A stretch of DNA of 35,555 nt from a virus (Duplodnaviria; Caudoviricetes): positions 1 to 35,555 of IMG/VR virus record IMGVR_UViG_3300017766_001320. One strand, written 5' to 3'. The translations under genes were made by a program, and so were the position numbers. Numbering within the stretch: the stretch's first letter is position 1; the number at the start of each line of letters is the position of its first letter. The notes beneath the pieces are model-generated. The model worked only from the letters and a program-made list of their open reading frames with translations. It did not search any database and was not told the DNA's origin. This document shows, one piece after another, positions 8,731 through 20,825 of the stretch.

Positions 8731-8954
8731 TGATGAACACTATGGTTACTCTTACCCGTCGTTCACCTTTCTCTGGTAATGTCAATACCATGACATTTAA
8801 TGTATCTGAGGAAGAGTTTGACAAACGATATGAAATGTGGCAGAATGGTACTCTAATTCAGAATGCATTCCCAATGTTGAATGCGGATGAACGGGAGTTT
8901 ATCATGACTGGCATCACTTCCCAAGAATGGGACGAAACTTTTGGAGATGAATGA
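8730..8954 (+). CDS. hypothetical phage protein
   Basis: IQNAFPMLNADEREFIMTGIT pattern; GGAG SD. Confidence 0.8.
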   Translation: MMNTMVTLTRRSPFSGNVNTMTFNVSEEEFDKRYEMWQNGTLIQNAFPMLNADEREFIMTGITSQEWDETFGDE

Positions 8955-9274
8955 TGACTTTCTATACGTTTAATCAGAATAACTCCGGTGGTCACTTTGA
9001 CGTTGACGAAAACGTTTGTCACCGCGTTATTATTGAAGCACTGAATGTTGAACACGCCATCGCAAGAGCCGAAAATATTGGCATCTACTTTGACGGTGTT
9101 GAGAAGGGAATTGATTGCCCATGCTGCGGTGATCGCTGGTGTGAGCCTTGGGACAACGAAGGTACTGATACACCTATGATCTATGGTGAACCAGCATCGG
9201 AGTATTATAAGTCTAGCTGGACGATTCCTTCAGTAATTATCCATTATGCAGACGGACGAAAAGAATCTTTCTAA
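8951..9274 (+). CDS. hypothetical phage protein
   Basis: FNQNNSGG and DCPCCGDRW motifs. Confidence 0.8.
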   Translation: MMTFYTFNQNNSGGHFDVDENVCHRVIIEALNVEHAIARAENIGIYFDGVEKGIDCPCCGDRWCEPWDNEGTDTPMIYGEPASEYYKSSWTIPSVIIHYADGRKESF

Positions 9275-9367: not shown

Positions 9368-9955
9368 ATGATTATATGTAAATATTGTAAAAACGAAAAT
9401 GTCTCTTCGGCACACATTCGTTGGTGTGTGGAAAATCCGAAAAGAGAAATCAATAGACAAAAAATGTTGGACACAAAACGATCAAATGTCCAAGTTCCTT
9501 GGAATAAAGGAATCAAATGGGAAAAAAAGAATAAGTTTTCAAAAGGAATGACAGGTAAAAATCATTCTAACGAAACTAAAAAAATATTGAAACAAAAGGC
9601 ATTATCTTCAGACCATAGAAGATTGAAACGTAAAGATATAGAATATAATGGCATTCTGTTAGATTCTACATGGGAATTATATCTAGCCCAACGACTTGAT
9701 GAACAAAACATAAAATGGATTAGACCTAATCCTATAAAATGGATAGATAAAGGCGGAAATATACACAACTACTTTCCTGACTTCTATTTACCTGAATATG
9801 ATCTATATTTGGATCCTAAAAATCCAATAGCATATAAAGTTCAAAGTGAAAAGATAGAATGTCTAAAAGAACAGTTGACAAATCTACACATTCTATGTAG
9901 TATAGAAGAAATAGAAAACTTTACCCCCGTAATGGCCGCGTCTTCTAAACGATAG
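9368..9955 (+). CDS. putative homing endonuclease (Zn finger, NUMOD3-like, PD-(D/E)XK)
   Basis: CKYC..H..WC, GKNHSNETKKIL, DSTWE...YFPDFYL...LDPK. Confidence 0.8.
   Translation: MIICKYCKNENVSSAHIRWCVENPKREINRQKMLDTKRSNVQVPWNKGIKWEKKNKFSKGMTGKNHSNETKKILKQKALSSDHRRLKRKDIEYNGILLDSTWELYLAQRLDEQNIKWIRPNPIKWIDKGGNIHNYFPDFYLPEYDLYLDPKNPIAYKVQSEKIECLKEQLTNLHILCSIEEIENFTPVMAASSKR
9875..9903 (+). promoter_or_regulatory. sigma70 promoter embedded in endonuclease ORF
   Basis: TTGACA-N17-TAGTAT, 20 nt before the tRNA-Arg-like gene. Confidence 0.65.
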
Positions 9956-10001
9956 GTGCATAACTGGAATAATGCAGGTTCAAGTCCTGTCGGGGGTGCC
10001 A
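9923..10001 (+). tRNA. atypical tRNA-Arg(UCU), D-armless with enlarged variable region
   Basis: Acceptor ACCCCCG/CGGGGGT-GCCA, loop CT-TCT-AA, T arm GCAGG-TTCAAGT-CCTGT. Confidence 0.7.
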
Positions 10002-10028
10002 GTTTAGATAGGTTAAACTTTGGAGAAT

Positions 10029-10208
10029 ATGATGACGAATAAGATCATGAATAAGATTGATGCATGGAAGAGCGGTAAAAATCCGTGGGTAACTTTTGAG
10101 ACAGGGCAGAAGAACATGCCCTATAAGCGTCAAAAGGCTAATGAAGTGTGGGGTGATCCTCGCGCACATTGGGCTGATCCAAAGGGTAAGAAAGAAAAGA
10201 CAGAATAA
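10029..10208 (+). CDS. small basic hypothetical protein
   Basis: GGAG SD; AWKSGKNPWVT motif. Confidence 0.7.
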   Translation: MMTNKIMNKIDAWKSGKNPWVTFETGQKNMPYKRQKANEVWGDPRAHWADPKGKKEKTE

Positions 10209-10216
10209 CAAATAAT

Positions 10217-10292
10217 GCCTGCGTAGCCCAGCGGCAGAGGCAGGGGACTTAAAATCCCCAAAGCGTCAGTTCGAATCTGACCGCAGGTACCA
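10217..10292 (+). tRNA. tRNA-Leu(UAA), short variable loop
   Basis: GGGGA-CTTAAAA-TCCCC; encoded CCA. Confidence 0.92.
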
Positions 10293-10296
10293 TATT

Positions 10297-10371
10297 GCGC
10301 GAGTAGCTTAATGGTGAAGCCGGCCGCTCATAACGGTCTTAGTGGGAGTTCGATTCTCTCCTCGCGCACCA
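10297..10371 (+). tRNA. tRNA-CAU, probably Ile2 (lysidine type)
   Basis: GGCCG-CTCATAA-CGGTC; CCA. Confidence 0.85.
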
Positions 10372-10451
10372 GAGGCAAAAAATGTTGAAGTCCAATTCAA
10401 CACTCAACGGATGTAGGTGACGATGGGGGATATCGGAACCTTCACTATTTT

Positions 10452-10542
10452 GGGAGTGGCTGTTGGTACAGGGGAAAGTCTTATAAACTTTTAGCGGCAG
10501 ATTACCGTTTTCCACAGTGTTCAAATCACTGCACTCCTACCA
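10452..10542 (+). tRNA. atypical tRNA with UAU anticodon and long variable arm
   Basis: GGGAGTG/CACTCCT-ACCA; AAAGT-CTTATAA-ACTTT; T arm CAGTG-TTCAAAT-CACTG. Confidence 0.75.
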
Positions 10543-10564
10543 ACACTGCGACAATATAGCACAC

Positions 10565-10593
10565 TTGACGTTCCAGTATAATTGTGTTATATT
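10565..10593 (+). promoter_or_regulatory. sigma70-like promoter
   Basis: TTGACG-N17-TATATT, preceded by a TGCGACA half-site. Confidence 0.6.
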
Positions 10594-10619
10594 GTATAAA
10601 GAATAAGACGAGGTAACAA

Positions 10620-10820
10620 ATGCTAGAAGTGGCAGAATATGTCTTTGTTGTAACTGAAGAGGTGGGCAATCGCGTCAAGTTCAAGGGAACATTTGATTCT
10701 TATGCTGAAGCCCTCACTGAATACTCAAAGCGTATCAAGAATGCGCCAACTGAAAATGTAATTTCTCTGCAAAAAGTAGAAAAATATTTTCAGTCTCTTG
10801 ACAATCCTGCAAAAAGGTGA
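10620..10820 (+). CDS. hypothetical protein
   Basis: GAGGT SD; 66 aa. Confidence 0.7.
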   Translation: MLEVAEYVFVVTEEVGNRVKFKGTFDSYAEALTEYSKRIKNAPTENVISLQKVEKYFQSLDNPAKR

Positions 10821-10828
10821 TATAAATA
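10798..10828 (+). promoter_or_regulatory. overlapping sigma70 and T4 late promoter
   Basis: TTGACA-N17-TATAAA; the -10 is also TATAAATA. Confidence 0.75.
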
Positions 10829-10833
10829 TAAAC

Positions 10834-10926
10834 ATGAATACAAAACATTACTTCCAAAATATGAATACGAAATCTGAACGACCATGCTATGGTATTGGTA
10901 GTTCATGGGTTCTTGTGAGAATGTAG
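10834..10926 (+). CDS. putative attenuator leader peptide MNTKHYFQNMNTKSERPCYGIGSSWVLVRM
   Basis: ATG at predicted +1 (leaderless); 18 different amino acids in 30 codons; 3' end overlaps antiterminator strand. Confidence 0.65.
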   Translation: MNTKHYFQNMNTKSERPCYGIGSSWVLVRM

Positions 10927-10956
10927 ATACTCTTAGGTCTACATACTAAGTTCAAG

Positions 10957-10985
10957 AACCCTAGATGAAAGTCTAGGGTTTTTTT
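10957..10985 (+). terminator. intrinsic terminator (attenuator)
   Basis: AACCCTAGAT-GAAA-GTCTAGGGTT followed by T run. Confidence 0.9.
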
Positions 10986-10990
10986 ATATC

Positions 10991-11003
10991 CGCTGTTTGA
11001 CAA
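10991..11003 (+). promoter_or_regulatory. boxA-like antitermination element
   Basis: CGCTGTTTGACAA vs rrn/lambda boxA (T/C)GCTCTTTAACA. Confidence 0.5.
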
Positions 11004-11010
11004 TTAAATG

Positions 11011-11203
11011 CAACTTTTTCCGGCTTTAGAGAAACCGGACGCATTGCACCGCGATAGCAATGGCGAGAAGACTTGTGCAAAAGTCTCTCGCACCTTATCT
11101 TGGGCACACTGTTAACAAATCAGTCTGGGAAGACTTACGAGGCTATACTAGTTAAATTTAGCCCGTTCGTAGAAAAATCTACAGTGTGCCTTAGATAGAG
11201 TTG
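11011..11203 (+). ncRNA. candidate multi-stem ncRNA
   Basis: TCCGG/CCGGA, CATTGC/GCAATG, GCGAGA-AGACTT/AAGTCT-CTCGC, GGCACACTGT/ACAGTGTGCC stems; no credible ORF. Confidence 0.55.
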
Positions 11204-11229
11204 ACAAACAAACAATCCTGATGTAGAAT
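11201..11229 (+). promoter_or_regulatory. sigma70 promoter before tRNA-Tyr
   Basis: TTGACA-N17-TAGAAT. Confidence 0.65.
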
Positions 11230-11255
11230 ACAAAATGTAAAGTGAATTAAAGTTT

Positions 11256-11347
11256 GGGGAGTGCAAGTAAGGACTGGCTGGTGCCGTCGGGACGCTGTAA
11301 ACGTCTTCCTTATAGGCAAGAGGTTCGATTCCGTCCATTCCCCACCA
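11256..11347 (+). tRNA. atypical tRNA-Tyr(GUA)
   Basis: GGACG-CTGTAAA-CGTCT; 8-bp acceptor GGGGAGTG/CATTCCCC; bulged T stem; CCA. Confidence 0.8.
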
Positions 11348-11354
11348 AAAATAT

Positions 11355-11431
11355 TCCCAAGGAGCCTGATTGGTACAGGCACGTGACTGTTAATCACGCC
11401 GCTATAGGTTCGAGTCCTATCTTGGGAGCCA
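11355..11431 (+). tRNA. tRNA-Asn(GUU)
   Basis: CGTGA-CTGTTAA-TCACG; U1-A72; GCCA. Confidence 0.93.
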
Positions 11432-11501
11432 AATTTGATGTGTATAGCCAAAGACGAAGGTCGAAGGATATAGTCTGTGTTAAGTCGTAAGCCACGTAAA
11501 G

Positions 11502-11584
11502 GGACTGGTTACCGTAGTGGCGAACGGCGCAGACTTTTAATCTGCTATACAACATCGTGGGTTCGAGTCCCACCCAGTCCTCCA
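11502..11584 (+). tRNA. tRNA-Lys(UUU), 11-nt variable region, U73
   Basis: GCAGA-CTTTTAA-TCTGC; GGACTGG/CCAGTCC-TCCA. Confidence 0.88.
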
Positions 11585-11590
11585 ATATGC

Positions 11591-11665
11591 GCAAGTGAGT
11601 CCGAGAAGCGAGGGCCAGAGCTGATAACTCTGTGGTAGAAGGAGCGTTACCTTCCGCTTGCACCA
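11591..11665 (+). tRNA. tRNA-Ile(GAU), non-canonical T loop
   Basis: CAGAG-CTGATAA-CTCTG; T loop AGCGTTA; ACCA. Confidence 0.82.
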
Positions 11666-11671
11666 ATTATT

Positions 11672-11781
11672 CAAAAGGGGAGAAGGCGGAATAGGCGCGC
11701 TTCGTTCCAAATCCGCAAATAGGAACAAAGCATTTTGCGGATGCTTAAGTTGAGGTTCAAGTCCTCACTTCTCCTCTTTTG
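11672..11781 (+). ncRNA. tRNA-like RNA with pseudoknot in place of anticodon arm, no CCA
   Basis: 14-bp terminal stem, T arm TGAGG-TTCAAGT-CCTCA, ATCCGCAAA/TTTGCGGAT crossing GTTCC/GGAAC. Confidence 0.65.
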
Positions 11782-11911
11782 TATAAATGGCAATCACGAG
11801 GCTCGGTGGTCCAGAAGCGGTCTCCCATATATGTAATGTATATGATGGATAGAACTTACTAGAATGCGTAATGTCGGTACTATGAAACGTCCGATGCACC
11901 GATAACAATAT

Positions 11912-11989
11912 GCGGTAGTCTTCTAATTGGACTAGGAAAACAGACTTTCAATCTGTGCAATGAGGGTTCGAGTCCCTTCTACCGCACCA
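11912..11989 (+). tRNA. tRNA-Glu(UUC)
   Basis: ACAGA-CTTTCAA-TCTGT; CCA. Confidence 0.92.
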
Positions 11990-12220
11990 TTTTATCCTGC
12001 TTTCTAGATACGCAGGAGAGACCTGGGCCAGAGTAACATGAGGAGAACGCTGGTTAATATCGGATTGCTTACCTCTTCAGATCAATGGGCTGAACCGATA
12101 AGGTGTATGGAATACAGTTGCTGGAGTGCTATAGAAACGGTGTCCATGGTCTGTTTCTTGTGTGTACCAGTAGTGGGGCTGCGATAAACTAGCCACTATA
12201 AAAGACGCGGATGAATAAAC

Positions 12221-12295
12221 GGACCCCTAGCTCAGAGGAAGAGCAACCGCCTCTTAAGCGGTAGGTCGAGATATCGTAATTCTCGGGGTCTACCA
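12221..12295 (+). tRNA. tRNA-Lys(CUU)
   Basis: ACCGC-CTCTTAA-GCGGT; T loop ATCGTAA; CCA. Confidence 0.88.
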
Positions 12296-12349
12296 AAGTT
12301 TTTTTTCAAAAAAGGTAATCTATTTTGAAAAAATAGAAGTCAAAAGCCT

Positions 12350-12484
12350 ATGTCCGAAGAAACAAAAGAAAAGATACGAGAGAAAAGAAAAACTCAAATT
12401 CCACCTAATCTAGGAAGAAAGATGAGTGAAGAAACGAAAGAAAAAATTAGACAGTCTATTATCAATAAAAATATGCCTGTGTAG
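12350..12484 (+). pseudogene. NUMOD3-repeat remnant of a homing endonuclease
   Basis: MSEETKEKIR occurs twice; no nuclease domain; stop lies inside tRNA-Met. Confidence 0.75.
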
Positions 12485-12549
12485 TTCATTGATAGAACCT
12501 GCGTCTCATAAGCGCAAGGTAGGTGGTTTGATTCCATCCGCAGGCACCA
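12475..12549 (+). tRNA. tRNA-Met(CAU), probably elongator
   Basis: TGCGT-CTCATAA-GCGCA; GCCTGTG/CGCAGGC-ACCA. Confidence 0.85.
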
Positions 12550-12569
12550 AACACACAAAGAGAAAGACA

Positions 12570-13079
12570 ATGAAAAATATTTGGATTATATCCGACACAC
12601 ACTTTAATCATGAAAACATTATCAAGTATTGCAATCGTCCATTTGCAAATGCTAAAGAAATGAACGAAGCACTAGTTGAAAACTGGAATAGTGTTGTCAA
12701 GGATGATGATATCATTTATCATCTTGGAGACGTTTATTTTGGTAGAGATAGTTCATGGTCGTCAAAATTAAATGGTCGTAAGCGGCTGATTATAGGAAAT
12801 CATGATAATGTTAAGAATGTTGTTTTGACAAAAATGTTTGAAAAGATCATGATTTGGCGTGCGTTCCCAGAATTTGGTTTGTTTCTAAGTCATATGGCAG
12901 TTCATCCGTCTGCTTTTGAGTTAAAAGCATGTCGTAATCTTCATGGGCACACTCACGATGTTGATGTTTCAGATGAAAAAATTACTCTTGACAACGAGAC
13001 ATTTTCCAAGTATTATAATGTATGCGTTGAGAAAACTGGCTACAAGCCAATCAACATTGAGGAATTAAGAATTAAGTAA
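12570..13079 (+). CDS. calcineurin-like metallophosphoesterase
   Basis: SDTH, GDVY, GNHD, SH, HGHTH motifs; start moved to 12570. Confidence 0.93.
   Translation: MKNIWIISDTHFNHENIIKYCNRPFANAKEMNEALVENWNSVVKDDDIIYHLGDVYFGRDSSWSSKLNGRKRLIIGNHDNVKNVVLTKMFEKIMIWRAFPEFGLFLSHMAVHPSAFELKACRNLHGHTHDVDVSDEKITLDNETFSKYYNVCVEKTGYKPINIEELRIK
12988..13016 (+). promoter_or_regulatory. sigma70 promoter embedded in phosphoesterase 3' end
   Basis: TTGACA-N17-TATTAT. Confidence 0.55.
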
Positions 13080-13083
13080 CAAT

Positions 13084-13160
13084 CCGTGTGTAGCGCAGCC
13101 TGGTAGCGCATCTGCTTTGGGAGCAGAGGGTCGGGAGTTCGATTCTCTCCACACGGACCA
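13084..13160 (+). tRNA. tRNA-Pro(UGG)
   Basis: TCTGC-TTTGGGA-GCAGA; CCA. Confidence 0.95.
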
Positions 13161-13166
13161 AAATAT

Positions 13167-13242
13167 GCTTCTCTGGCGTAACTGGTGTGCGCGCTCCGCT
13201 GAAGACGGAGAGGATGCAGTTCGATTCTGTGGGGAAGCACCA
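13167..13242 (+). tRNA. tRNA-Phe(GAA)
   Basis: CTCCG-CTGAAGA-CGGAG; CCA. Confidence 0.9.
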
Positions 13243-13243
13243 T

Positions 13244-13319
13244 TGGCGCATAGCTCAATCGGTAGAGCGACGGTCTTTGAAACCGTAGGTTGAAGGTTCA
13301 AGCCCTTCTGCGCCAGCCA
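13244..13319 (+). tRNA. tRNA-Gln(UUG)
   Basis: ACGGT-CTTTGAA-ACCGT; U1-A72; GCCA. Confidence 0.93.
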
Positions 13320-13323
13320 ATTT

Positions 13324-13406
13324 GCGTCAGTATCGGCCTCCGCTACGAACGGAGAGTAACGTAACTGGAAAGGAAGATGTGGGTTCGAGTCCTACCTGAC
13401 GCTCCA
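13324..13406 (+). tRNA. atypical tRNA-Arg(ACG), D-armless with enlarged variable region
   Basis: GCGTCAG/CTGACGC-TCCA; CTCCG-CTACGAA-CGGAG; T arm GTGGG-TTCGAGT-CCTAC. Confidence 0.78.
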
Positions 13407-13532
13407 TAGCCTAGGATGATCATAGGTACTTATCGTCTCATATAGTGGCCACTGTTAAGACACTAAGTCACAATTCTATGTCATTTGCGCCCAATATCTG
13501 TGCGGGCGACTCAACTATATAATATACAGTTT

Positions 13533-13606
13533 GCGGGTATCGTATAAAGGTATTACGGCGCGTTGCCAACGCTCAGAAGTCGGATCGTTCCCGACTACCC
13601 GCTCCA
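13533..13606 (+). tRNA. tRNA-Gly(GCC)
   Basis: GCG-TTGCCAA-CGC; GCGGGTA/TACCCGC-TCCA. Confidence 0.9.
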
Positions 13607-13612
13607 TTCAAT

Positions 13613-13687
13613 GCGATCATAGTGCTAGAGGTAACACATCTGGCTTCCAACCAGAAATCGTCGGTTCGATTCCGACTGGTCGCTCCA
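13613..13687 (+). tRNA. tRNA-Gly(UCC)
   Basis: TCTGG-CTTCCAA-CCAGA; TCCA. Confidence 0.94.
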
Positions 13688-13731
13688 TAAAACAAAGGCG
13701 GGATGAGTAATCTGTAAGACCTATGAATCAT

Positions 13732-13805
13732 TGCGGGCGGGGGGTCAGTATCCTCTTGGGCTCATAACTCAAGGAACGTCGTGCAACTCGGCGGCAACGC
13801 AACCA
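13732..13805 (+). tRNA. initiator-like tRNA-Met(CAU), irregular acceptor stem
   Basis: TTGGG-CTCATAA-CTCAA; TGCG.../...CGCA-ACCA; T loop TGCAACT. Confidence 0.7.
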
Positions 13806-13817
13806 AATTCAAATAAT

Positions 13818-13892
13818 GCACCTATACGCATCTGGTGAGGCGACCCGTCTGTCTAACGGGTGAGGAGGGCTCGATTCCCTTTAGGTGCGCCA
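13818..13892 (+). tRNA. tRNA-Asp(GUC)
   Basis: CCCGT-CTGTCTA-ACGGG; GCCA. Confidence 0.9.
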
Positions 13893-13896
13893 TCAT

Positions 13897-13972
13897 TGGG
13901 GATTAGTTCAGTTGGTAGAACGCAGGATTCTGATTCCTGATGTCCGAGGTTCAAGTCCTTGATCCCCAGCCA
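13897..13972 (+). tRNA. tRNA-Gln(CUG)
   Basis: CAGGA-TTCTGAT-TCCTG; GCCA. Confidence 0.94.
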
Positions 13973-13987
13973 ATCTAAGGATATATC

Positions 13988-14140
13988 ATGGCTCATAAAG
14001 CAAGACGTAGGCCATCTTGGAAAAAACGTAAGTCTAAGTATCTTGATAAAAAGAAGAAGGATTTATTTGATCTTCTTGCTTTGGAAATTCGTAGAGAAAT
14101 TGACAAAGAGATTATAAGAACTTTATTTGCTGTTAAATAA
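13988..14140 (+). CDS. 50-aa basic protein with gp23-like C-terminal helix
   Basis: AAGGA SD; MAHKARRRPSWKKRK...LLALEIRREIDKEIIRTL; not in ORF track. Confidence 0.7.
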   Translation: MAHKARRRPSWKKRKSKYLDKKKKDLFDLLALEIRREIDKEIIRTLFAVK

Positions 14141-14144
14141 TAAC

Positions 14145-14222
14145 GGGGAAGTGCGCCGGAATTGGTTACGGCAGGGTCTGCAAAACCTACGAATGCGAGT
14201 TCGAGTCTCGTCTTCCCCTCCA
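14145..14222 (+). tRNA. tRNA-Cys(GCA)
   Basis: GGGT-CTGCAAA-ACCT; U73-CCA. Confidence 0.92.
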
Positions 14223-14240
14223 TAACAAAAAGGAAAGAAA

Positions 14241-14462
14241 ATGCTAAGAACAATTTATAAATCTTTGATCATGATTTTGTTCTTGACTTCCTTAGCATAC
14301 GCTGCTAAAATACAAATAATAGATGAGGCAGAGTGGATTGTTCCAAACAATGTCAACAAAGTCCGCTTCATATATACAAGACCAGATGGATCAATAATCA
14401 TTGATCGTGAAATAAAAACAGTTACAGGCGAAAAGTTCGTGCTGCGAATTGTCAAGGAGTGA
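14241..14462 (+). CDS. small exported protein
   Basis: Signal-peptide-like N terminus ending AYA. Confidence 0.7.
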   Translation: MLRTIYKSLIMILFLTSLAYAAKIQIIDEAEWIVPNNVNKVRFIYTRPDGSIIIDREIKTVTGEKFVLRIVKE

Positions 14463-14467
14463 AGAGA

Positions 14468-15052
14468 ATGAAGTTTAAGGCTGCTATTGTTTCTTTGGCT
14501 ATGTTTGCTACTTCTGCATATGCGGGAGAATCATTTTTTTCATTTGATGTTCGGTCCGGACCTTTCATGGTCTATGGTGTAGCGGGCGAAACAAATCCGC
14601 GAAATAATCCTGCTTGCTATGCAGAAGTTACTTGGCGCGATGGTTCTAAATTCCAGTTAATTCGCGATCTTGATGACGGCGAACTTTATATCTTTGTAAG
14701 GAATAATACATGGAACGTCACTGACGCGCCTGGCATTTATAATGTGCGTATCAATTTTGAAAAGTATGGAAGCATTATTAATGGATTAAATTTTCAGTAT
14801 AATCTTCTCAATAAAAACACTATTGTTATTCGCAATATAAAGAAGGAAACTTTTTTACCATTATTCTCAAATGGTAATAAGATGATCTTTGTAATGCCCG
14901 GTTCAATTCAAAATGCAGAAGTATCACTTGAAGGTTCCACTCGCGCATTAACAGAGATTGCAAATTGTGTCGATAGGTCTACAGGTGTTAATCTTTGGCC
15001 TGATGGCAAGCCTAATGGTGAGAATAACAATAGGTTGTTTGACCGTATCTAA
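14468..15052 (+). CDS. exported/periplasmic hypothetical protein
   Basis: MKFKAAIVSLAMFATSAYA signal peptide; two Cys; AAGGAG SD. Confidence 0.8.
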   Translation: MKFKAAIVSLAMFATSAYAGESFFSFDVRSGPFMVYGVAGETNPRNNPACYAEVTWRDGSKFQLIRDLDDGELYIFVRNNTWNVTDAPGIYNVRINFEKYGSIINGLNFQYNLLNKNTIVIRNIKKETFLPLFSNGNKMIFVMPGSIQNAEVSLEGSTRALTEIANCVDRSTGVNLWPDGKPNGENNNRLFDRI

Positions 15053-15062
15053 ATAGAATAAT

Positions 15063-15139
15063 GCTGACATAGCTTTAATTGGTAGAGCAGTCGCCTTGTA
15101 AGCGTCAGGTTGGGAGTTCGAGTCTCTCTGTCAGCACCA
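15063..15139 (+). tRNA. tRNA-Thr(UGU)
   Basis: CGC-CTTGTAA-GCG; GCTGACA/TGTCAGC-ACCA. Confidence 0.93.
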
Positions 15140-15146
15140 TTATAAT

Positions 15147-15236
15147 GGAGTGCATATCTAGTCGGGGATACTAGCACCGCCTTGAAAGCGGTTGGAGCCT
15201 TCGGGCCAGGGGTTCGATTCCGCCATCACTCCGCCA
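15147..15236 (+). tRNA. atypical tRNA-Ser(UGA)
   Basis: ACCGC-CTTGAAA-GCGGT; long variable arm with cUUCGg; bulged acceptor and T stems; GCCA. Confidence 0.85.
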
Positions 15237-15256
15237 TTTTGTAAATGAGGTTAAAC

Positions 15257-15475
15257 ATGATTATAAGTACATATAGTCAAAATCGGCGCAAAGCAATTAT
15301 ACATAAAGAAGATAGTGGCTTTGTTGTTAGATTGTATGAAAACAATGTTTTAGTCGATGTTCGTGATCTATCAAATCATAGCATCCACTATGCTGAATCT
15401 CTTGCTGAAAACTTCGTAGAATATATTGGTGAATTTTATATCGGCAATGGTAATCGTCAACTGCTTACAGAGTAG
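15257..15475 (+). CDS. hypothetical phage protein
   Basis: GAGGT SD; HSIHYAESLAENFV motif. Confidence 0.75.
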   Translation: MIISTYSQNRRKAIIHKEDSGFVVRLYENNVLVDVRDLSNHSIHYAESLAENFVEYIGEFYIGNGNRQLLTE

Positions 15476-15486
15476 GATTTAAAGAA

Positions 15487-15843
15487 ATGGCAAAGTACTG
15501 GGGTTATCATTTAATGTTGGATTGCTCTCATTGCAATGAGTATGCAATTCGTGATTATGACACGGTGTATAATTTTACCAAAGAGTTGGTAGAAAAGATT
15601 AAGATGGTAGCATATGGTGAACCTCAGATTGTTCATTTTGGTAAAGATGACAAGGCTGGTTTTACTTTGGTGCAACTGATTGAGACTTCGAACATTTGCG
15701 CCCATTTCGTAAATGCTGAGAATGTAATCTATCTTGATGTATTTTCTTGCAAAGAGTTTGATCATAATGCTGTTATTGAGACTGTCAAGAAGTATTTCGA
15801 TGCAATTCATGTAAGAATAAATTACATTACGAGACAGGTATGA
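15487..15843 (+). CDS. speD: S-adenosylmethionine decarboxylase proenzyme-like
   Basis: GYHLMLD, LIETSNICAH, YLDVFSCK. Confidence 0.85.
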   Translation: MAKYWGYHLMLDCSHCNEYAIRDYDTVYNFTKELVEKIKMVAYGEPQIVHFGKDDKAGFTLVQLIETSNICAHFVNAENVIYLDVFSCKEFDHNAVIETVKKYFDAIHVRINYITRQV

Positions 15844-16037
15844 AGACCGAGAAAGTCTCTCTTAGAGAGATTATGGAAGATGATAACTCACCTTACATGA
15901 AAAACCTTGTAGATAAATTTATGAAACAGTATGGTGATGAACTTGGAAAGATTATCGCAGATAGTAACAAAAGAGTGGATAGCAGAATGGGGCGCGACAG
16001 CAATCTTAATCGTAGGCGTAGCACTCGTTGCGTTTAA
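15840..16037 (+). CDS. hypothetical protein (3' half overlaps next gene)
   Basis: ATGA coupling to speD. Confidence 0.45.
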   Translation: MKTEKVSLREIMEDDNSPYMKNLVDKFMKQYGDELGKIIADSNKRVDSRMGRDSNLNRRRSTRCV

Positions 16038-16188
16038 TATCTATCCACTTGGCATCTGGTTTTCTCTAGCAGGTAATCTTGGATGGCTAATTGTTGGGTG
16101 GATGTGGCGTAAGTGGTCGCTCTTGACAATTCAGATAATTGTTGCTACAATATATATCGTAGGATTGATCAATTATTATGGAAACTGA
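15937..16188 (+). CDS. small 3-TM membrane protein (PnuC-like pattern)
   Basis: Three hydrophobic segments, Trp-rich, NIYPLG motif. Confidence 0.7.
   Translation: MNLERLSQIVTKEWIAEWGATAILIVGVALVAFNIYPLGIWFSLAGNLGWLIVGWMWRKWSLLTIQIIVATIYIVGLINYYGN
16123..16151 (+). promoter_or_regulatory. sigma70 promoter embedded in CDS
   Basis: TTGACA-N17-TACAAT with TG extension. Confidence 0.6.
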
Positions 16189-16345
16189 AATGACTGCAAG
16201 CAACGAAGATTATGCAAAGTTACATGCTGACTATGTGTGGTGCAAGGATATACTTGAACGCATTGCAGAAATTCTAAAGAACGAATCTTTAGAACCTGAT
16301 GATATTGAAGCAATCAAGTGGCTTGTCGAGCAGGGTTTAAAGTAA
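16178..16345 (+). CDS. 55-aa hypothetical protein
   Basis: METEMTASNEDYAKLH...; fills gap before tRNA-Ala. Confidence 0.6.
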   Translation: METEMTASNEDYAKLHADYVWCKDILERIAEILKNESLEPDDIEAIKWLVEQGLK

Positions 16346-16352
16346 TAGTTTC

Positions 16353-16425
16353 GGGGGATGCTCAGGGCAAGCACGAATCCTTTGCAAGGAATCTGAGATC
16401 GGTTCGAGTCCGATATCCTCCACCA
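16353..16425 (+). tRNA. tRNA-Ala(UGC)
   Basis: TCC-TTTGCAA-GGA; G3.U70 pair; ACCA. Confidence 0.88.
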
Positions 16426-16428
16426 AGT

Positions 16429-16527
16429 TTCGGAATCTAAGCGGTGTAAATAGGGAACCCGCTGAATGTTGAACTGCTGGTAAAACCGATAAAATCACCT
16501 ATGATGTGCAGGACGCAAGATTCCGAA
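16429..16527 (+). ncRNA. candidate structured ncRNA
   Basis: 10-bp closing stem TTCGGAATCT/AGATTCCGAA; inner AGCGG/CCGCT; possible ATAGG/CCTAT pseudoknot. Confidence 0.55.
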
Positions 16528-16588
16528 TCCTATAAGGGTGGCTACTTAATAAGCTCGCGTGGGTCCACGGTTAGCCCACAACAGTTTC

Positions 16589-16664
16589 GCCTCGTGCGCC
16601 AGATGGGACGGCTGCGCGTTTACACCGCGCCATTGACGGAGTTCGATTCTCTGACGAGGCACCA
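16589..16664 (+). tRNA. tRNA-Val(UAC)
   Basis: GCGCG-TTTACAC-CGCGC; ACCA. Confidence 0.88.
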
Positions 16665-16669
16665 TTATT

Positions 16670-16700
16670 GCTCTAGTAGCCCAATTGGTAGAGGTGCTTG
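16670..16700 (+). pseudogene. 5' half of a tRNA-Leu-like gene
   Basis: GCTCTAG-TAGCCCAATTGGTAGAGGTG, then abrupt change to AT-rich HNH remnant. Confidence 0.7.
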
Positions 16701-16733
16701 AAATTATAAATATGTTTATCTCCACTGATAAAC

Positions 16734-16872
16734 ATGCCTAATCCAAAAGATCAAGTTAGAAGTTGATCATATAGATGGAAACAAGATCAACAATGTCAGA
16801 ACAAATCTTAGAGGTTTGTGTCCTAATTGTCATTCATTCACAGATACGTGGAGAAAGAAAAAGCGCGGGTAG
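16734..16872 (+). pseudogene. HNH endonuclease remnant
   Basis: LEVDHIDGNKINNVRTNLRGLCPNCH out of frame with ATG 16734; TATAAATA at 16705-16712. Confidence 0.85.
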
Positions 16873-16939
16873 CCCAATGGCAGGAGGCAACAGTCTTAGA
16901 AACTGTACAGTGTGAGTTCGAGTCTCACCTCGCGCACCA
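16863..16939 (+). tRNA. tRNA-Leu(UAG), short variable loop
   Basis: ACAGT-CTTAGAA-ACTGT; ACCA. Confidence 0.92.
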
Positions 16940-16963
16940 TTTTATGTATTATAAGGATACAAT

Positions 16964-17143
16964 ATGTCTGAATGTATCATAGAAGTTGAGAAAATTTTTC
17001 AATCACCTACTACACCAGTTCATGAAGTGGTGTATCTAGTTAGAATTACTTTACCCGAACAGTCCGTAGAATTTCAAAAAGAATTACTAGAATTCTTAGA
17101 GAAGAAATCTAATATCCAATTTAAACAAACAATGCCTATGTAG
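16964..17143 (+). CDS. 59-aa hypothetical protein
   Basis: AAGGA SD; stop codon falls inside next tRNA. Confidence 0.6.
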   Translation: MSECIIEVEKIFQSPTTPVHEVVYLVRITLPEQSVEFQKELLEFLEKKSNIQFKQTMPM

Positions 17144-17210
17144 TCCAACTGGTAGAGGCGTCGGCTTCAAACTCCGAATGTTGGGGGTTCGAGTCCCTCC
17201 ATAGGCACCA
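17134..17210 (+). tRNA. tRNA-Leu(CAA), short variable loop
   Basis: TCGGC-TTCAAAC-TCCGA; GCCTATG/CATAGGC-ACCA. Confidence 0.88.
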
Positions 17211-17231
17211 TCTTAATGAAAGAAAGTAATC

Positions 17232-17360
17232 ATGAATAAGTACACTGAATCTAAAATCTTCAAGAGGGCTAAGAGTGCGTTTGATATTGCTGCCACAATA
17301 TCTATCATCTTTTGGATTCCTATCATAGCCATCATTTTTAGCGCACTGTTTATCTGGTAG
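17232..17360 (+). CDS. 42-aa single-TM protein
   Basis: MNKYTESKIFKRAK followed by hydrophobic C terminus. Confidence 0.6.
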   Translation: MNKYTESKIFKRAKSAFDIAATISIIFWIPIIAIIFSALFIW

Positions 17361-17366
17361 TTATTT

Positions 17367-17441
17367 CCTAACTTGGTGTTAATGGTAGCACGCTGTGTTG
17401 TGGCCACGGAAGCCTAGGATCGTAACCTAGAGTTAGGACCA
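17367..17441 (+). tRNA. tRNA-His(GUG), no G-1, A73
   Basis: CTGTG-TTGTGGC-CACGG; CCTAACT/AGTTAGG-ACCA. Confidence 0.9.
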
Positions 17442-17465
17442 TTAGTTGCATTGTTGTCGTTTTAG

Positions 17466-17483
17466 TATAAATAAGTATAAATA
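17466..17483 (+). promoter_or_regulatory. tandem T4 late promoters
   Basis: TATAAATA twice. Confidence 0.75.
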
Positions 17484-17503
17484 TCATCTGAAAGGTGACA
17501 TTT

Positions 17504-18055
17504 ATGCTAAGATTCAAACAATTTCTAGAAGAAAAAGTTCTCTCAATAGGTTTAAATCCTAAACATGAAAAATTTCGTGAAAAGTATCGTGCAGATATGC
17601 ATGATGTTATTCGCAAATCATATTCTAATGTTGAGGGAGGATATGCCGGATTAAGTCACGGCAGCAAGGAAGAAAGTGATGCAATTCATAATGATATTAG
17701 CAATTCAGCGATCAAAGCAATTAGACGAGATGGACGTATCACTGCTGTAAATCTGTACAAAAAATCTCATGGTCGTAAATCAATTGCTATGGGACATGAC
17801 GGAACAGATCAGGGAAAGAAAGATGTACGCCAGATTATGTCAGATGATAAAAAGAAAGAGCGTTCCTGGGGCGAAGTATCTGGAGCAGTGGAACACATCA
17901 GACGTAAAATGGGTTATCCTGTTATTCCTTCCAGTAGAGCAAAAGAACTGACTGGAAAATCAGATGTGAGGGAAATTGATCCAGAAAAATATGAGCGTCA
18001 GATTGGAAAAGAAAAACACGTAAAGACTCTCATGGGATACCCAAAAAAAGATTGA
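17504..18055 (+). CDS. basic late protein, probably capsid-targeted
   Basis: MLRFKQFLEE N terminus resembles the T4 internal-protein capsid targeting sequence; late promoter upstream. Confidence 0.75.
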   Translation: MLRFKQFLEEKVLSIGLNPKHEKFREKYRADMHDVIRKSYSNVEGGYAGLSHGSKEESDAIHNDISNSAIKAIRRDGRITAVNLYKKSHGRKSIAMGHDGTDQGKKDVRQIMSDDKKKERSWGEVSGAVEHIRRKMGYPVIPSSRAKELTGKSDVREIDPEKYERQIGKEKHVKTLMGYPKKD

Positions 18056-18080
18056 CTTTCTAAATAAAATGATCTATAAT
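18052..18080 (+). promoter_or_regulatory. sigma70 promoter
   Basis: TTGACT-N17-TATAAT. Confidence 0.7.
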
Positions 18081-18102
18081 ACATGTAAGATAGTGAGAGG
18101 CG

Positions 18103-18624
18103 ATGAAAAAGGTAATCATATATTGTCATGGATATAATTCCTCGGCCCAGAGCGACAAGGTAAAGCGTCTGACTGCGGCTGGTGAAGTGTTTGCTTGGGA
18201 TATCAATATTGATCCTGAAGTATCCTTGAATGATCTTGAACAAAAGATAGATGATCTTCTCATTTCCAAAATGAATGAAGATTTTATGTTGGTATTTGTT
18301 GGCACATCTCTTGGCGCTTGGTATGCTTCAAAGTTGGCTGATATTTATGCAGCATATGCCGTTCTAATCAATCCTGCAATAAACCCAAAAACAAGTTTGG
18401 CTAAGTATGGAATTGAAGAAAGTGTTTTGAATAACTACCTAAATCCAATTTTCTTTTGCACTGATGATAAGGTTTTCATCGGCACAGAAGATGAGGTTAT
18501 AGACTTTAGTAATGTAAATTTTGGACCCGCAAATGTTGAATATGTGAAAGCAAAGCATCGCTTCAATGGACCAGAATTCGAAATGGTAGTTGAGTATATA
18601 AAAAACTTGAGAGAAGTAAAATGA
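18103..18624 (+). CDS. YqiA/YcfP-type alpha/beta hydrolase
   Basis: HGYNSS, GTSLG, LINPA, DEVID, HRF. Confidence 0.9.
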   Translation: MKKVIIYCHGYNSSAQSDKVKRLTAAGEVFAWDINIDPEVSLNDLEQKIDDLLISKMNEDFMLVFVGTSLGAWYASKLADIYAAYAVLINPAINPKTSLAKYGIEESVLNNYLNPIFFCTDDKVFIGTEDEVIDFSNVNFGPANVEYVKAKHRFNGPEFEMVVEYIKNLREVK

Positions 18625-19100
18625 GAAAGAAGCTTGATCTAGACGAAGTTAGACAGTTCATCATGAACAGTTCCGATACAACATCAATTTATATTGGTGC
18701 AGACTCAGAACGTTATCGTGGTAAAGATGATGCATGGTATGCAGACTATACTGTGGCTATTGTCGTTCACATGGATAGTTCACGTGGCTGCAAGATTTTC
18801 GGCCAGGTAGACACTGAACGAGATTTTGATAATCGTCATGATCGTCCTGCAATGCGTCTGATGAATGAAGTCTATCGTGCATCGCAGATGTATCTTGATC
18901 TAGCGGAAGCAATTGGTGATCGTCACGTTGAGGTGCACTTGGACATTAACCCAGACTTAATGCATGGTTCTTCTTGCGTTGTGCAGCAGGCTATTGGTTA
19001 TGTTCGTGGTGTATGTAATGTGATACCAATGGTAAAGCCAAATGCATTCGCAGCATCTTATGCGGCAGACAGACTCAAGGAAGTTCTGGACGCAGCATGA
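18621..19100 (+). CDS. RNase H-like YkuK-family protein
   Basis: YIGADS, RLMNEV, VHLDIN, KPNAFAASYAAD. Confidence 0.88.
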   Translation: MRKKLDLDEVRQFIMNSSDTTSIYIGADSERYRGKDDAWYADYTVAIVVHMDSSRGCKIFGQVDTERDFDNRHDRPAMRLMNEVYRASQMYLDLAEAIGDRHVEVHLDINPDLMHGSSCVVQQAIGYVRGVCNVIPMVKPNAFAASYAADRLKEVLDAA

Positions 19101-19195
19101 AAAATAAACAGTATAATGACGAGATAGAAATAATAGTAGGAATAGGCATCTTCGCTATACTTCTATCCGTCATTAGCATTATGTTCTCAAGATAA
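19097..19195 (+). CDS. 32-aa single-TM protein
   Basis: ATGA coupling; hydrophobic core. Confidence 0.5.
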   Translation: MKNKQYNDEIEIIVGIGIFAILLSVISIMFSR

Positions 19196-19202
19196 TAACA
19201 AT

Positions 19203-19290
19203 GGAGCGTGGGCAGGCTGGTAATGCAGCGGTTTGCTAAACCGTACAACCCCTAAAGGTTGAATAGGTTCGATTCCTATACGCTCCGCCA
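19203..19290 (+). tRNA. tRNA-Ser(GCU)
   Basis: GCGGT-TTGCTAA-ACCGT; long variable arm; GCCA. Confidence 0.94.
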
Positions 19291-19348
19291 AAAAATAACA
19301 CTTGACATCCTCAAAAGAAATAACTGTAATATATACAACTGAGAAATT
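19290..19348 (+). repeat. 59-bp promoter-containing direct repeat, copy 1
   Basis: 57/59 identical to 20566-20624; TTGACA-N17-TGTAAT. Confidence 0.92.
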
Positions 19349-19377
19349 GAAACGAACACAAGCCCGGAGATTATATT

Positions 19378-20130
19378 ATGGCTAAGATGCATGAACTTCT
19401 CGCAGTTGAATCGGCGGTAACTGCAAACTTCCAGCGCGATCTAGAAGAGACACTAAAGGTACTAGCACGACCAGATCATTTCCAGAAGCAGGTAGCACAA
19501 AAGACTTTCTTCGCTGAAGAAGACCAGAGGCTCAACGTTTCTGAAACAAAGGACATTACCACTACAGTTGGTGAGCGTCTAAATTGGTTTTCTGGTGCAG
19601 CAGAAAAGTATCTAGATGTTATTATTCAGAAGGACAAGACAAACCAGAAGGCTGTCGCCGACATTGCTCTTGACGATGGTACTGTAGTTGCTGCGGATGT
19701 ACCAGCAACCACACTTCTGGCACTTGAAACAAAGTTGCAAGACTTGCGGAAGGTTTTCATTGCTGTTCCTACTCTACCTTCGGGTATTATGTGGGAATGG
19801 GATGCTGCTGAGAACCTTTGGAAGACAAAGGAACCTGTTGTTACTTTCCAGACTAAGAAGACTGCTAAGGCGGTTGTTCTTTATGAAGCGACCAAGGAGC
19901 ATCCTGCTCAGGTTAAGGAAGTCTTTGAAGACGTTCCTGTTGCAAAGATTACCAAAGATACCTATAACGGTATGGTAACTTCTGCACAGAAGGCAGAGGT
20001 TCTAGGTCGTCTAGATTCTCTCTTGAAGGCTGTTAAGCAGGCACGTCAACGCGCCAACAACGTTGATGCAGACAAGACTAAGATTGGTCCTGCTATTACT
20101 AAGTTTCTTCTTGGTGATATCAAGAAGTAA
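19378..20130 (+). CDS. conserved helical protein of unknown function (recalled as DUF7873-like, unverified)
   Basis: 250 aa; MAKMHELLAVE, VPATTLLALE, ATKEHPAQV, AVKQARQRAN; GGAG SD. Confidence 0.85.
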   Translation: MAKMHELLAVESAVTANFQRDLEETLKVLARPDHFQKQVAQKTFFAEEDQRLNVSETKDITTTVGERLNWFSGAAEKYLDVIIQKDKTNQKAVADIALDDGTVVAADVPATTLLALETKLQDLRKVFIAVPTLPSGIMWEWDAAENLWKTKEPVVTFQTKKTAKAVVLYEATKEHPAQVKEVFEDVPVAKITKDTYNGMVTSAQKAEVLGRLDSLLKAVKQARQRANNVDADKTKIGPAITKFLLGDIKK

Positions 20131-20134
20131 GAGT

Positions 20135-20561
20135 TTGGGTGGGAAATTTCCCACCCAATATTGGGCGTACCTGAGGGGGTACATAGTTCGTCGTTAAACT
20201 CTTAATCAAACTAAAATGCGGAACTACTCCATCTGCAATTGCAGATGTCCGTTTATCGTTTAGCCCAGAAGTTTAACAAACACTATAGGGTTCTTGAGCA
20301 TATAGACAATTATCTAACAGACGATGGGGGTTCGATTCCCTCATCCCTCTCCACAGATGTATCGCGGTATATCTTTGATGAGGGATTAGGTTAATGGTAA
20401 ACCGTCTGATTGAAACTTATGTTTATATGTCTAAAAACAAGTGACTAGAGTTCCCATGCTCGTCATGTTGGAACTACCCGAAAGTGATGTCATCTGACAG
20501 AGACTGTGAATCTCTAAACCAGACCACGGGGTGTGCAGTCGGATATGCTGCACACCTTTTT
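20135..20561 (+). ncRNA. large structured RNA containing a circularly permuted tRNA module (20318-20408)
   Basis: Order is T arm, acceptor 3' strand + TCCA, linker hairpin, acceptor 5' strand, D arm; multiple outer stems; no ORF. Confidence 0.75.
20530..20561 (+). terminator. intrinsic terminator
   Basis: GGTGTGCAG/CTGCACACC followed by TTTTT. Confidence 0.88.
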
Positions 20562-20565
20562 CTTT

Positions 20566-20624
20566 AAAAAATAATACTTGACATCCTCAAAAGAAATAAC
20601 TATAATATATACAACTGAGAAATT
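20566..20624 (+). repeat. 59-bp promoter-containing direct repeat, copy 2
   Basis: TTGACA-N17-TATAAT consensus. Confidence 0.92.
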
Positions 20625-20652
20625 CAGTTAGCAACCCACTAGAGAAAAAAAC

Positions 20653-20739
20653 ATGAAGACTAGTACAATCGTTGGTATTGCTGTTGCGGGATTTGTTGTT
20701 CTATCAGCAGTTGGTGGTGGATCATCAGGAGATTACTAA
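20653..20739 (+). CDS. 28-aa hydrophobic ORF, possibly truncated
   Basis: MKTSTIVGIAVAGFVVLSAVGGGSSGDY after promoter. Confidence 0.45.
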   Translation: MKTSTIVGIAVAGFVVLSAVGGGSSGDY

Positions 20740-20749
20740 ATATGACAAT

Positions 20750-20825
20750 GCATCGTAAGCATTTAGGGGCGATGCTTCGGTCTCCAAAACCGAGGAGTGG
20801 GGTTCGAGTCCTCAACGATGTGCCA
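20750..20825 (+). tRNA. tRNA-Trp(CCA)
   Basis: TCGGT-CTCCAAA-ACCGA; GCCA. Confidence 0.9.

Follow-up and report, generated by a model that had tools for sequence, protein, structure and literature searches.

Why phages carry whole sets of tRNA genes is an open question, to which the standing answers are codon usage and counter-defence. The locus described here raises it at close range. In a viral stretch of 35,555 nt (hereafter the window) a short ORF followed by a terminator-like hairpin lies ahead of tRNA genes for all 20 amino acids. The question is whether this element attenuates transcription, what it senses and how far it controls the array. Judged from sequence and folding, the element is very likely an attenuator that couples transcription of tRNA genes to the ribosome. 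Its leader probably tests the decoding of codons that are served by the downstream phage tRNAs, a stall giving more transcription into the array.

About 22% complete, the window is a 35.6-kb piece of an uncultured phage whose PHROGs (DNA polymerase, UvsX, helicase and primase) mark it as T4-like. Its helicase shares 60-65% identity with helicases of cyanophages and Methylophilales phages, and the sequencing runs holding its sequence are labelled freshwater metagenome. A Polynucleobacter-titled MAG that contains one member of the subfamily described below gives a hint only of the host.

ARAGORN finds 24 tRNAs in the window, from 10217 to 20825, to which Rfam and inspection by eye add atypical Arg(TCT), Tyr, Ile(GAT), Arg(ACG) and Ser(TGA) genes. 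Four tRNA genes on the plus strand (9923..10542; ARAGORN, Rfam and eye) are upstream of the element and outside the switch, namely Arg(TCT, atypical), Leu(TAA), Met/Ile2(CAT) and Ile(TAT); this block, whole or partial, also stands ahead of the leader in all six close relatives. It is the downstream set that covers all 20 amino acids. Its proximal block (11255..15232, plus strand) runs Tyr, Asn, Lys, Ile, Glu, Lys, Met, Pro, Phe, Gln, Arg, Gly, Gly, Asp, Gln, Cys, Thr, Ser, with Tyr and Ser(TGA) detected at relaxed thresholds only, Ile(GAT) at 11590 called by eye and Arg(ACG) at 13324 by Rfam and eye. The distal block (16353..20825, plus strand) runs Ala, Val, Leu, Leu, His, Ser, Trp and lies beyond more promoter-like sites (16123, 18052 and 20578).

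Several other features accompany the tRNA genes. The tRNA-like genes at 9923-9998, 11590-11665, 11679-11778 and 13324-13406 are atypical and were not called by ARAGORN: the D arms of Arg(TCT) and Arg(ACG) are unusual, the T loop of Ile(GAT) is non-standard and a further gene has a long anticodon arm. They are possibly nuclease-evading or repurposed variants. An S-adenosylmethionine decarboxylase-like gene (phrog_3125) lies within the array at 15487-15843. The stretch 20130-20540 resembles a tmRNA or another structured RNA, beta_tmRNA matching weakly at 20326-20388 (E 0.001), and has a terminator 3' of it at 20530-20556. A 59-nt direct repeat, 97% identical and carrying a TTGACA-type promoter, occurs at 19290-19348 and 20566-20624; similar repeated promoter modules follow the terminator in four other loci (L016, L040, L053 and L084).

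Leader ORF and alternative hairpins of the window

A promoter-like site can be read directly on the plus strand at 10798..10828, with a -35 box TTGACA (10798-10803), a 17-nt spacer and a -10 box TATAAA(TA) (10821-28). The -10 box extends to TATAAATA, five bases 5' of the ATG at 10834. The same octamer is the T4 late-promoter motif in the available text of PMC3014915, and at 10821-28 it is a candidate promoter of that kind. A simple scan listed neither this promoter, whose -10 box ends in A, nor the terminator, which was found by a separate detector. The leader ORF (10834..10926, plus strand) has 30 codons, is predicted to be leaderless and encodes MNTKHYFQNMNTKSERPCYGIGSSWVLVRM before its stop. 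The product contains 18 amino acids, each three times at most, and lacks Ala and Asp. Such diversity in 30 codons has a chance probability of 0.033 by base shuffle, 0.082 by codon-position shuffle and 0.022 against protein windows of the phage's own genes; taken alone it is borderline. The initial annotation had also noted several synonymous Ser, Thr, Arg, Tyr and Val codons, but diversity at the codon level is not above chance (24 distinct codons, 23.0 expected) and was discarded as a feature of the window.

Upstream of the leader, a 66-codon ORF (10620-10820) has its own promoter-like site (10565) and ends 13 nt 5' of the leader ATG, so that transcripts from upstream could also supply the leader with ribosomes and run into its terminator. 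In metatranscriptomes one contig was found, its coverage confined to 10488-10666 and so outside the leader, and three DNA runs held no variants within the leader.

The leader RNA can fold in two mutually exclusive ways. The 5' arm of a putative antiterminator, GGGTTCTTG (10907..10915, plus strand), occupies codons 25-28 and is marked by sequence, folding and family covariation. It is the exact 9-nt complement of the 3' arm CAAGAACCC (10953..10961, plus strand), which is also part of the 5' arm of the terminator; an exact complement of this length in such register arises in about 7 per 10,000 shuffles. Between the arms lies an inner hairpin (10921..10944, plus strand; ATGTAGA at 10921-27 with TCTACAT at 10938-44), present in both folds and containing the last Met codon and the stop codon of the leader, the latter 17 nt past the arm start. 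The intrinsic terminator-like hairpin (10959..10985, plus strand), seen in sequence, folding and detector output, has an 8-bp stem (10959-66 with 10971-78), a GAAA loop and seven T (10979-85). A further hairpin, H1 (10875..10905, plus strand), lies inside the ORF and ends just 5' of the antiterminator arm, which it does not sequester; it is a probable RNA-polymerase pause hairpin. The initial annotation had placed the promoter, the 30-codon ORF of 18 amino acids, the complementary arms, the inner hairpin, the terminator and further promoter-like sites at 11201 and 12988, and every one of these coordinates is exact. Rfam gave no match, T-box included, over 10798-11003 at E up to 1.

The two folds are closely balanced. 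The RNA from the ATG to the T run has a folding z of -3.5, with the antiterminator as its minimum-energy form and the terminator as its centroid, and forced folds give -38.0 kcal/mol for the antiterminator and -37.9 kcal/mol for the terminator. On nascent RNA without a ribosome, before the 3' arm of the terminator is made, the antiterminator has a probability of at least 0.98, and with a ribosome modelled at codon 25 or later the terminator reaches 1.00; both hold in the window and its six close relatives. Against this reading, the full-length RNA at equilibrium favours the terminator at most stalled ribosome positions in the window and in one relative (L171), so that readthrough in these two would rest on the order of folding.

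A ribosome masks about 10 nt beyond its codon according to the text available of PMC4615214, and codons up to 21 would therefore leave the antiterminator arm free. With a sensing zone defined by codons ending at least 5-10 nt before the arm, codons 2-21 are predicted to sense 15 amino acids, the start Met included. Five are unsensed, since Leu, Val and Trp codons lie on the arm and Ala and Asp are missing. The idea that stalling at almost any codon would suffice is thus overstated for the window: it would apply to 15 amino acids and not to those on the arm. The tRNAs for four of the five unsensed amino acids sit in the distal block beyond the promoter-like site at 16123. The more distal position of tRNAs for unsensed amino acids gives p 0.003 by rank test in the window, as a post hoc pattern, and is not significant in the six relatives, which are truncated contigs (p 0.05-0.39).

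Conservation in close relatives and the wider family

The exact arm pair occurs in 36 viral stretches, with a terminator immediately after it and tRNAs nearby in 13. Narrower scans gave six distinct relatives (L167, L169, L170, L171, L184 and L194), which together with the window form a subfamily of seven; L177 is identical to the window and was excluded from every count. In all seven members TATAAATA is invariant and lies 4-5 nt 5' of the ATG, the first 36 nt of the leader RNA are unstructured, and the leader ORF is 29-31 codons long and divergent in its peptide, every indel being a multiple of three. The stop codon falls 14-17 nt past the arm start, and the inner hairpin, terminator and boxA-like site are kept, again in 7/7. 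The arms are invariant across the alignment; in L194 the inner hairpin carries TGA in place of TAG. H1 is present in all seven members, built from different sequences (z -1.7 to -2.5). As a family-wide feature H1 was rejected, being found in 7/48 clusters against 9/49 controls among the matches listed.

On bacterial chromosomes the narrow pattern yielded 21 contig matches with tRNAs at two of them and no chromosomal case: L194 is a member of the phage subfamily, and L191 has neighbour genes that we take to be phage-like. Eleven viral loci with a relative of the ORF at 8951-9274 are without tRNAs and therefore give no information on synteny.

A looser pattern occurs in an estimated ~560 viral stretches, and in at least 119 among the matches listed. 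The 173 matches listed fall into 119 clusters, of which 48 have a tRNA within 1 kb downstream and 50 do not; the other 21 are undecidable, having less than 1 kb of downstream sequence and no tRNA, and were set aside. The 48 tRNA-linked clusters represent about 24-30 lineages, one with 14-15 members. In the whole-record search, 43 of 44 records held exactly one match, and the reversed pattern was found in none of the 44.

Among the matches listed, a short ATG ORF stopping between the arms is present in 45/48 tRNA-linked clusters against 11/50 others (Fisher p 7e-14), its stop lying 6-34 nt past the arm start and its frame relative to the arm using all three registers (22/16/10). This position of the stop, along with fold order and ribosome masking, supports the attenuator anatomy and the direction of switching that had been put forward at the outset. 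Watson-Crick pairs at arm positions 6, 8, 9 and 10 occur in 46, 40, 39 and 28 of the 48 clusters among the matches listed, where permutation predicts 25, 22, 25 and 18. Control matches also pair above permutation, at positions 6, 8, 9 and 11, but less so; the excess in controls arises because the register was chosen to maximise the helix. The mean arm helix is 11.2 bp in tRNA-linked clusters against 9.8 bp in controls, again among the matches listed. The unconstrained positions of the antiterminator arms covary across the family.

Amino-acid content was counted with a leader start rule blind to content. Among the matches listed, 19/48 leaders contain all 20 amino acids against 0/21 control ORFs; in 15 of these 19 the last of the twenty to appear lies 5 nt or more before the arm, and 7-9 of the about 24-30 lineages have such a member. 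The six close relatives of the window have 16-17 amino acids, none significant singly (p 0.14-0.56, five tested).

Downstream of the terminator, the window carries a boxA-like site, GCTGTTTGACA (10992..11002, plus strand), a candidate Nus-factor antitermination signal for the readthrough RNA. It matches 10 of 11 positions of a degenerate consensus drawn from the accessible text of PMC13753749, on boxA antitermination of rrn operons and CRISPR arrays, and 9/12 positions of the E. coli consensus UGCUCUUUAACA, differing at 3. A boxA-like site precedes the first tRNA in 30/48 clusters against 1/50 controls among the matches listed. Such a site, a candidate for Nus loading, would suit a long untranslated readthrough RNA. 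As a positive control, 41 genomes from the genus of the L194-bearing MAG showed enrichment of the motif, but this control failed in that 0/20 fetched sites lay near 16S rRNA. The ORF enclosing the recurrent site at the one locus examined is presumably ribosomal protein S4. From the boxA-like site to the promoter-like site at 11201, the window (11003-11200) contains a run of hairpins with a long enclosing stem at 11103-11189, and relatives have a different structured insert at this position, with a CTATTCA/TGAATAG stem. The stretch is without an Rfam match and is a possible small RNA.

The same design is found in a cultured phage. Sinorhizobium phage Phosso (PV764938.1), reached via tRNA similarity, has an unrelated sequence in which 'hypothetical protein 599' is a 54-codon ORF with 19 amino acids (L265 9433-9650, equal to PV764938.1 419754-419971). 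Its antiterminator is 10 bp long, differs in sequence from that of the window and has z -4.4; its terminator lies 387 nt before the tRNA array, and two promoter-like sites follow. A generic detector flagged Phosso as the one positive among seven cultured tRNA-bearing phage regions, being negative for Mendera, Kikimora, RHph_I1_18, phiPMW, PBES 02 and crAss001; the detector has false negatives, having missed a leader in phage G086 that was found by eye. By blastn, the region and three leaders gave tRNA or chance matches only among cultured phages, and the Phosso leader has no relative in the cultured-phage collection. Matches in phiM12 and GR7B were rejected as ordinary intergenic terminators without tRNAs.

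Leader content, tRNA blocks and rival explanations

The deciding test asks whether arrays that supply only some amino acids have leaders limited in the same way, as they should if the leader samples the supply of the array. Long flanks were obtained for 28 loci and 26 were kept, L091 and L121 being dropped for short flanks. Leaders contain more different amino acids where the tRNA block supplies more, with rho 0.87 (n=26) by locus and 0.78 (n=16) by lineage, while leader length against block number gives rho 0.15. For 10 partial blocks, the share of leader residues with a cognate tRNA in the block is 0.75, against 0.57 permuted (p 1e-4). One locus (L128) has the leader MCSIFSTLTNGGRIICCGFL and then tRNAs for Cys, Ser, Phe, Gly, Ile, Asn, Thr and Arg; another (L038) has an Asn/Thr/Ile/Leu/Val leader, then tRNAs for those amino acids. 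In L095 the leader is without Asp, His, Arg and Tyr, and there the Asp, His and Tyr tRNAs and one Arg tRNA lie upstream. Some loci fit poorly: L078 and L048 have 19 tRNA types but 14 and 16 leader amino acids, and the leaders of L069 and L169 match their own block no better than foreign leaders do.

A 175-kb phage, G086 (L262 / L211), which the boxA-like motif alone brought up, with no use of the antiterminator pattern, has two leaders. One contains Ser/Leu/Gly/His/Tyr, is followed by those tRNAs and has no clear antiterminator. The other contains Ile, Arg, Lys, Trp, Phe and Cys, has a clear antiterminator unrelated in sequence to that of the window and precedes a block of Trp, Phe, Arg, Lys, Ile, Ile, Met, Arg, Lys and Cys. 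G086 also carries a tRNA with a CTA anticodon, and its leader without a clear antiterminator ends TAG TGA.

The match extends to codons in the subfamily. AGA is missing from its sensing zones, at 0/13 Arg codons against 41% in the genes of the window's genome, which is significant for counts that rest on seven mutually related leaders; TTA (0/9) and ATA (0/7) are likewise missing, neither significant alone (0.16 and 0.12). AGA, TTA and ATA are the codons of tRNAs that lie upstream, outside the switch. Leader content that tracks the tRNA block bears out part of the initial 'pan-amino-acid' reading, but the all-20 leader becomes a special case of matching to the block. Separately, leaders rich in Ile, Thr, Asn and Ser stand before matching partial blocks in L092, L096, L045 and L038. 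ANN codons, whose decoding depends on t6A-modified tRNAs, serve many of these amino acids, and these leaders are a possible modification-sensing variant.

The matching bears directly on a reading that takes the attenuator as real but has it respond to total translation capacity or to coupling (ribosome availability, leaderless initiation, host shut-off or antibiotics), its mixed codons merely avoiding bias toward a single amino acid. Default-on logic suits this account, as an untranslated leader would likewise give readthrough, and so do the borderline diversity of the window and the low share of regulatory codons, which in the accessible modelling of PMC1183508 means low sensitivity to any single amino acid. 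Yet sensing of rate has no need for partial-block leaders skewed to the amino acids of their own block, nor for two G086 leaders that match different blocks, and we hold this account to be unlikely.

How far the switch controls the array of the window is a separate matter. A second promoter-like site, TTGACA-17-TAGAAT (11201..11229, plus strand; promoter scan, 11 of 12 match), precedes the first downstream tRNA and bypasses the switch, and a further promoter-like site lies at 12988. Among the matches listed, 17/48 family clusters have a promoter-like site between the switch and the first tRNA, three of which overlap the boxA-like motif. With a consensus promoter at 11201 ahead of the first tRNA and four tRNA genes upstream of the switch, the 'gating' of the initial annotation is overstated; the switch is more likely a booster that would add to basal transcription from 11201 than a sole gate. 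A stronger version holds that an ancestral switch, working in relatives, is here a bypassed relic and that the 11201 promoter now drives the array. The closeness of that promoter to consensus and the presence of more promoters inside the array fit such a loss, as do two respects in which the window stands apart in its subfamily: it alone has a free-standing promoter before the first tRNA, and its sensing set is the second smallest. Against this, all parts are intact, an extra A-T pair is retained on both flanks of the terminator and H1 has been built anew, and tandem promoters past the terminator are common in intact family members; we think it very unlikely. Least probable of all is an independent small gene for a functional peptide or small RNA, with the antiterminator pairing incidental: promoter, ORF and terminator do form a complete unit and the tRNAs have a separate promoter, but the peptides are not conserved and the frame varies against the arm while the pairing covaries, leader content follows the neighbouring tRNA set, and Rfam gives no match.

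Proposed mechanism and comparison with known systems

For a leader that tests the decoding of codons served by the downstream tRNAs, the following order of events is proposed. The conserved spacing suggests that the first transcribed base is the A of the ATG and that the resulting leaderless, unstructured 5' end is where a ribosome loads. Polymerase would pause after H1 until the ribosome catches up, and the antiterminator is computed to form first, before the 3' arm of the terminator exists. A ribosome that passes about codon 22-25 and comes to the stop would, by the same computation, cover GGGUUCUUG and free the CCC arm, with termination at 10985. With the ribosome held at codons 2-21, or with none, the antiterminator would stay intact, and polymerase reading through would pass the boxA-like site and could cross the long untranslated array. 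Coupling of transcription to translation in the host of the window is an assumption of this mechanism. In attenuation modelling, as far as the text of PMC1183508 was available, sensitivity stays low when regulatory codons are few, unless decoding is severely slowed. With each amino acid represented by one or two codons, the switch should respond to deep tRNA loss or general slowdown more than to mild starvation, and the physiological signal may be deep tRNA loss, as from host tRNA nucleases, rather than mild starvation.

A broader proposal is more tentative, and we put it slightly short of an even chance: many unrelated large phages may place a codon-inventory leader before each tRNA block as a feedback loop on their own tRNAs, so that a tRNA drained by a host anticodon nuclease or by infection itself would stall the ribosome, flip the switch and lead to transcription of replacements. 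If true, this would be a sensor-actuated counter-defence and the first case of tRNA genes under attenuation, and the tRNAs that a phage guards could be read off its leader sequence. A switch tied to the decoding of the same codons would mark phage tRNA sets as an inducible reserve. The condition that flips the switch would then be the condition for which the tRNAs are kept, making the purpose of tRNA sets testable. The switch could also serve as a compact reporter of tRNA loss during infection, and a cultured carrier, Phosso, gets round the need to identify the host of the window.

No account of attenuators before phage tRNA genes was found in the literature searched, mainly the main texts of open-access papers. 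Phage tRNAs are described as offsetting host tRNA nucleases such as PARIS AriB in the part of PMC12409363 available, which supplies a reason for a sudden need of the phage's own tRNAs for several amino acids together; the account there covers tRNAs and not a sensor that raises them. As in the boxA-headed rrn operons and CRISPR arrays of PMC13753749, in its accessible text, a boxA-like sequence would head a long untranslated transcript, while the candidate boxA of the window differs in following a switchable terminator.

Other known systems share part of the logic. In T-box riboswitches tRNA status sets the choice of terminator or antiterminator, one uncharged tRNA being bound directly with no ribosome needed; the likeness lies in that choice, and the element described here differs in its conserved ORF and in having no Rfam T-box match. 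The thrL and ilv leaders are multivalent attenuator leaders.

The closest comparison is with E. coli trpL and hisL, leader-peptide transcription attenuators of amino-acid operons (PMC4615214 and PMC1183508, as available in part). Features of that class found here are a stop just past the arm and mutually exclusive hairpins of similar stability with covariation; regulatory codons cognate to the supplied products are found at the family level, the window alone being suggestive only. As in the accessible accounts of trpL and hisL, a short ORF is combined with antiterminator and terminator hairpins that exclude each other and are about equally stable, its codons correspond to what the operon supplies, and fast translation would lead to termination; H1 would probably be the counterpart of their pause hairpin. 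Unlike trp and his, the element would control tRNA genes rather than biosynthetic enzymes or synthetases, represents many amino acids by one or two codons each where those leaders repeat one, is predicted to start leaderless at a T4 late-like motif, has a boxA-like site after the terminator and is borne by a phage. Unlike trp, H1 does not pair with the arm (no 1:2 sequestering), and the predicted untranslated default is readthrough where that of trp is termination. Attenuation would in this way be extended from amino-acid operons to tRNA genes, with its default logic reversed.
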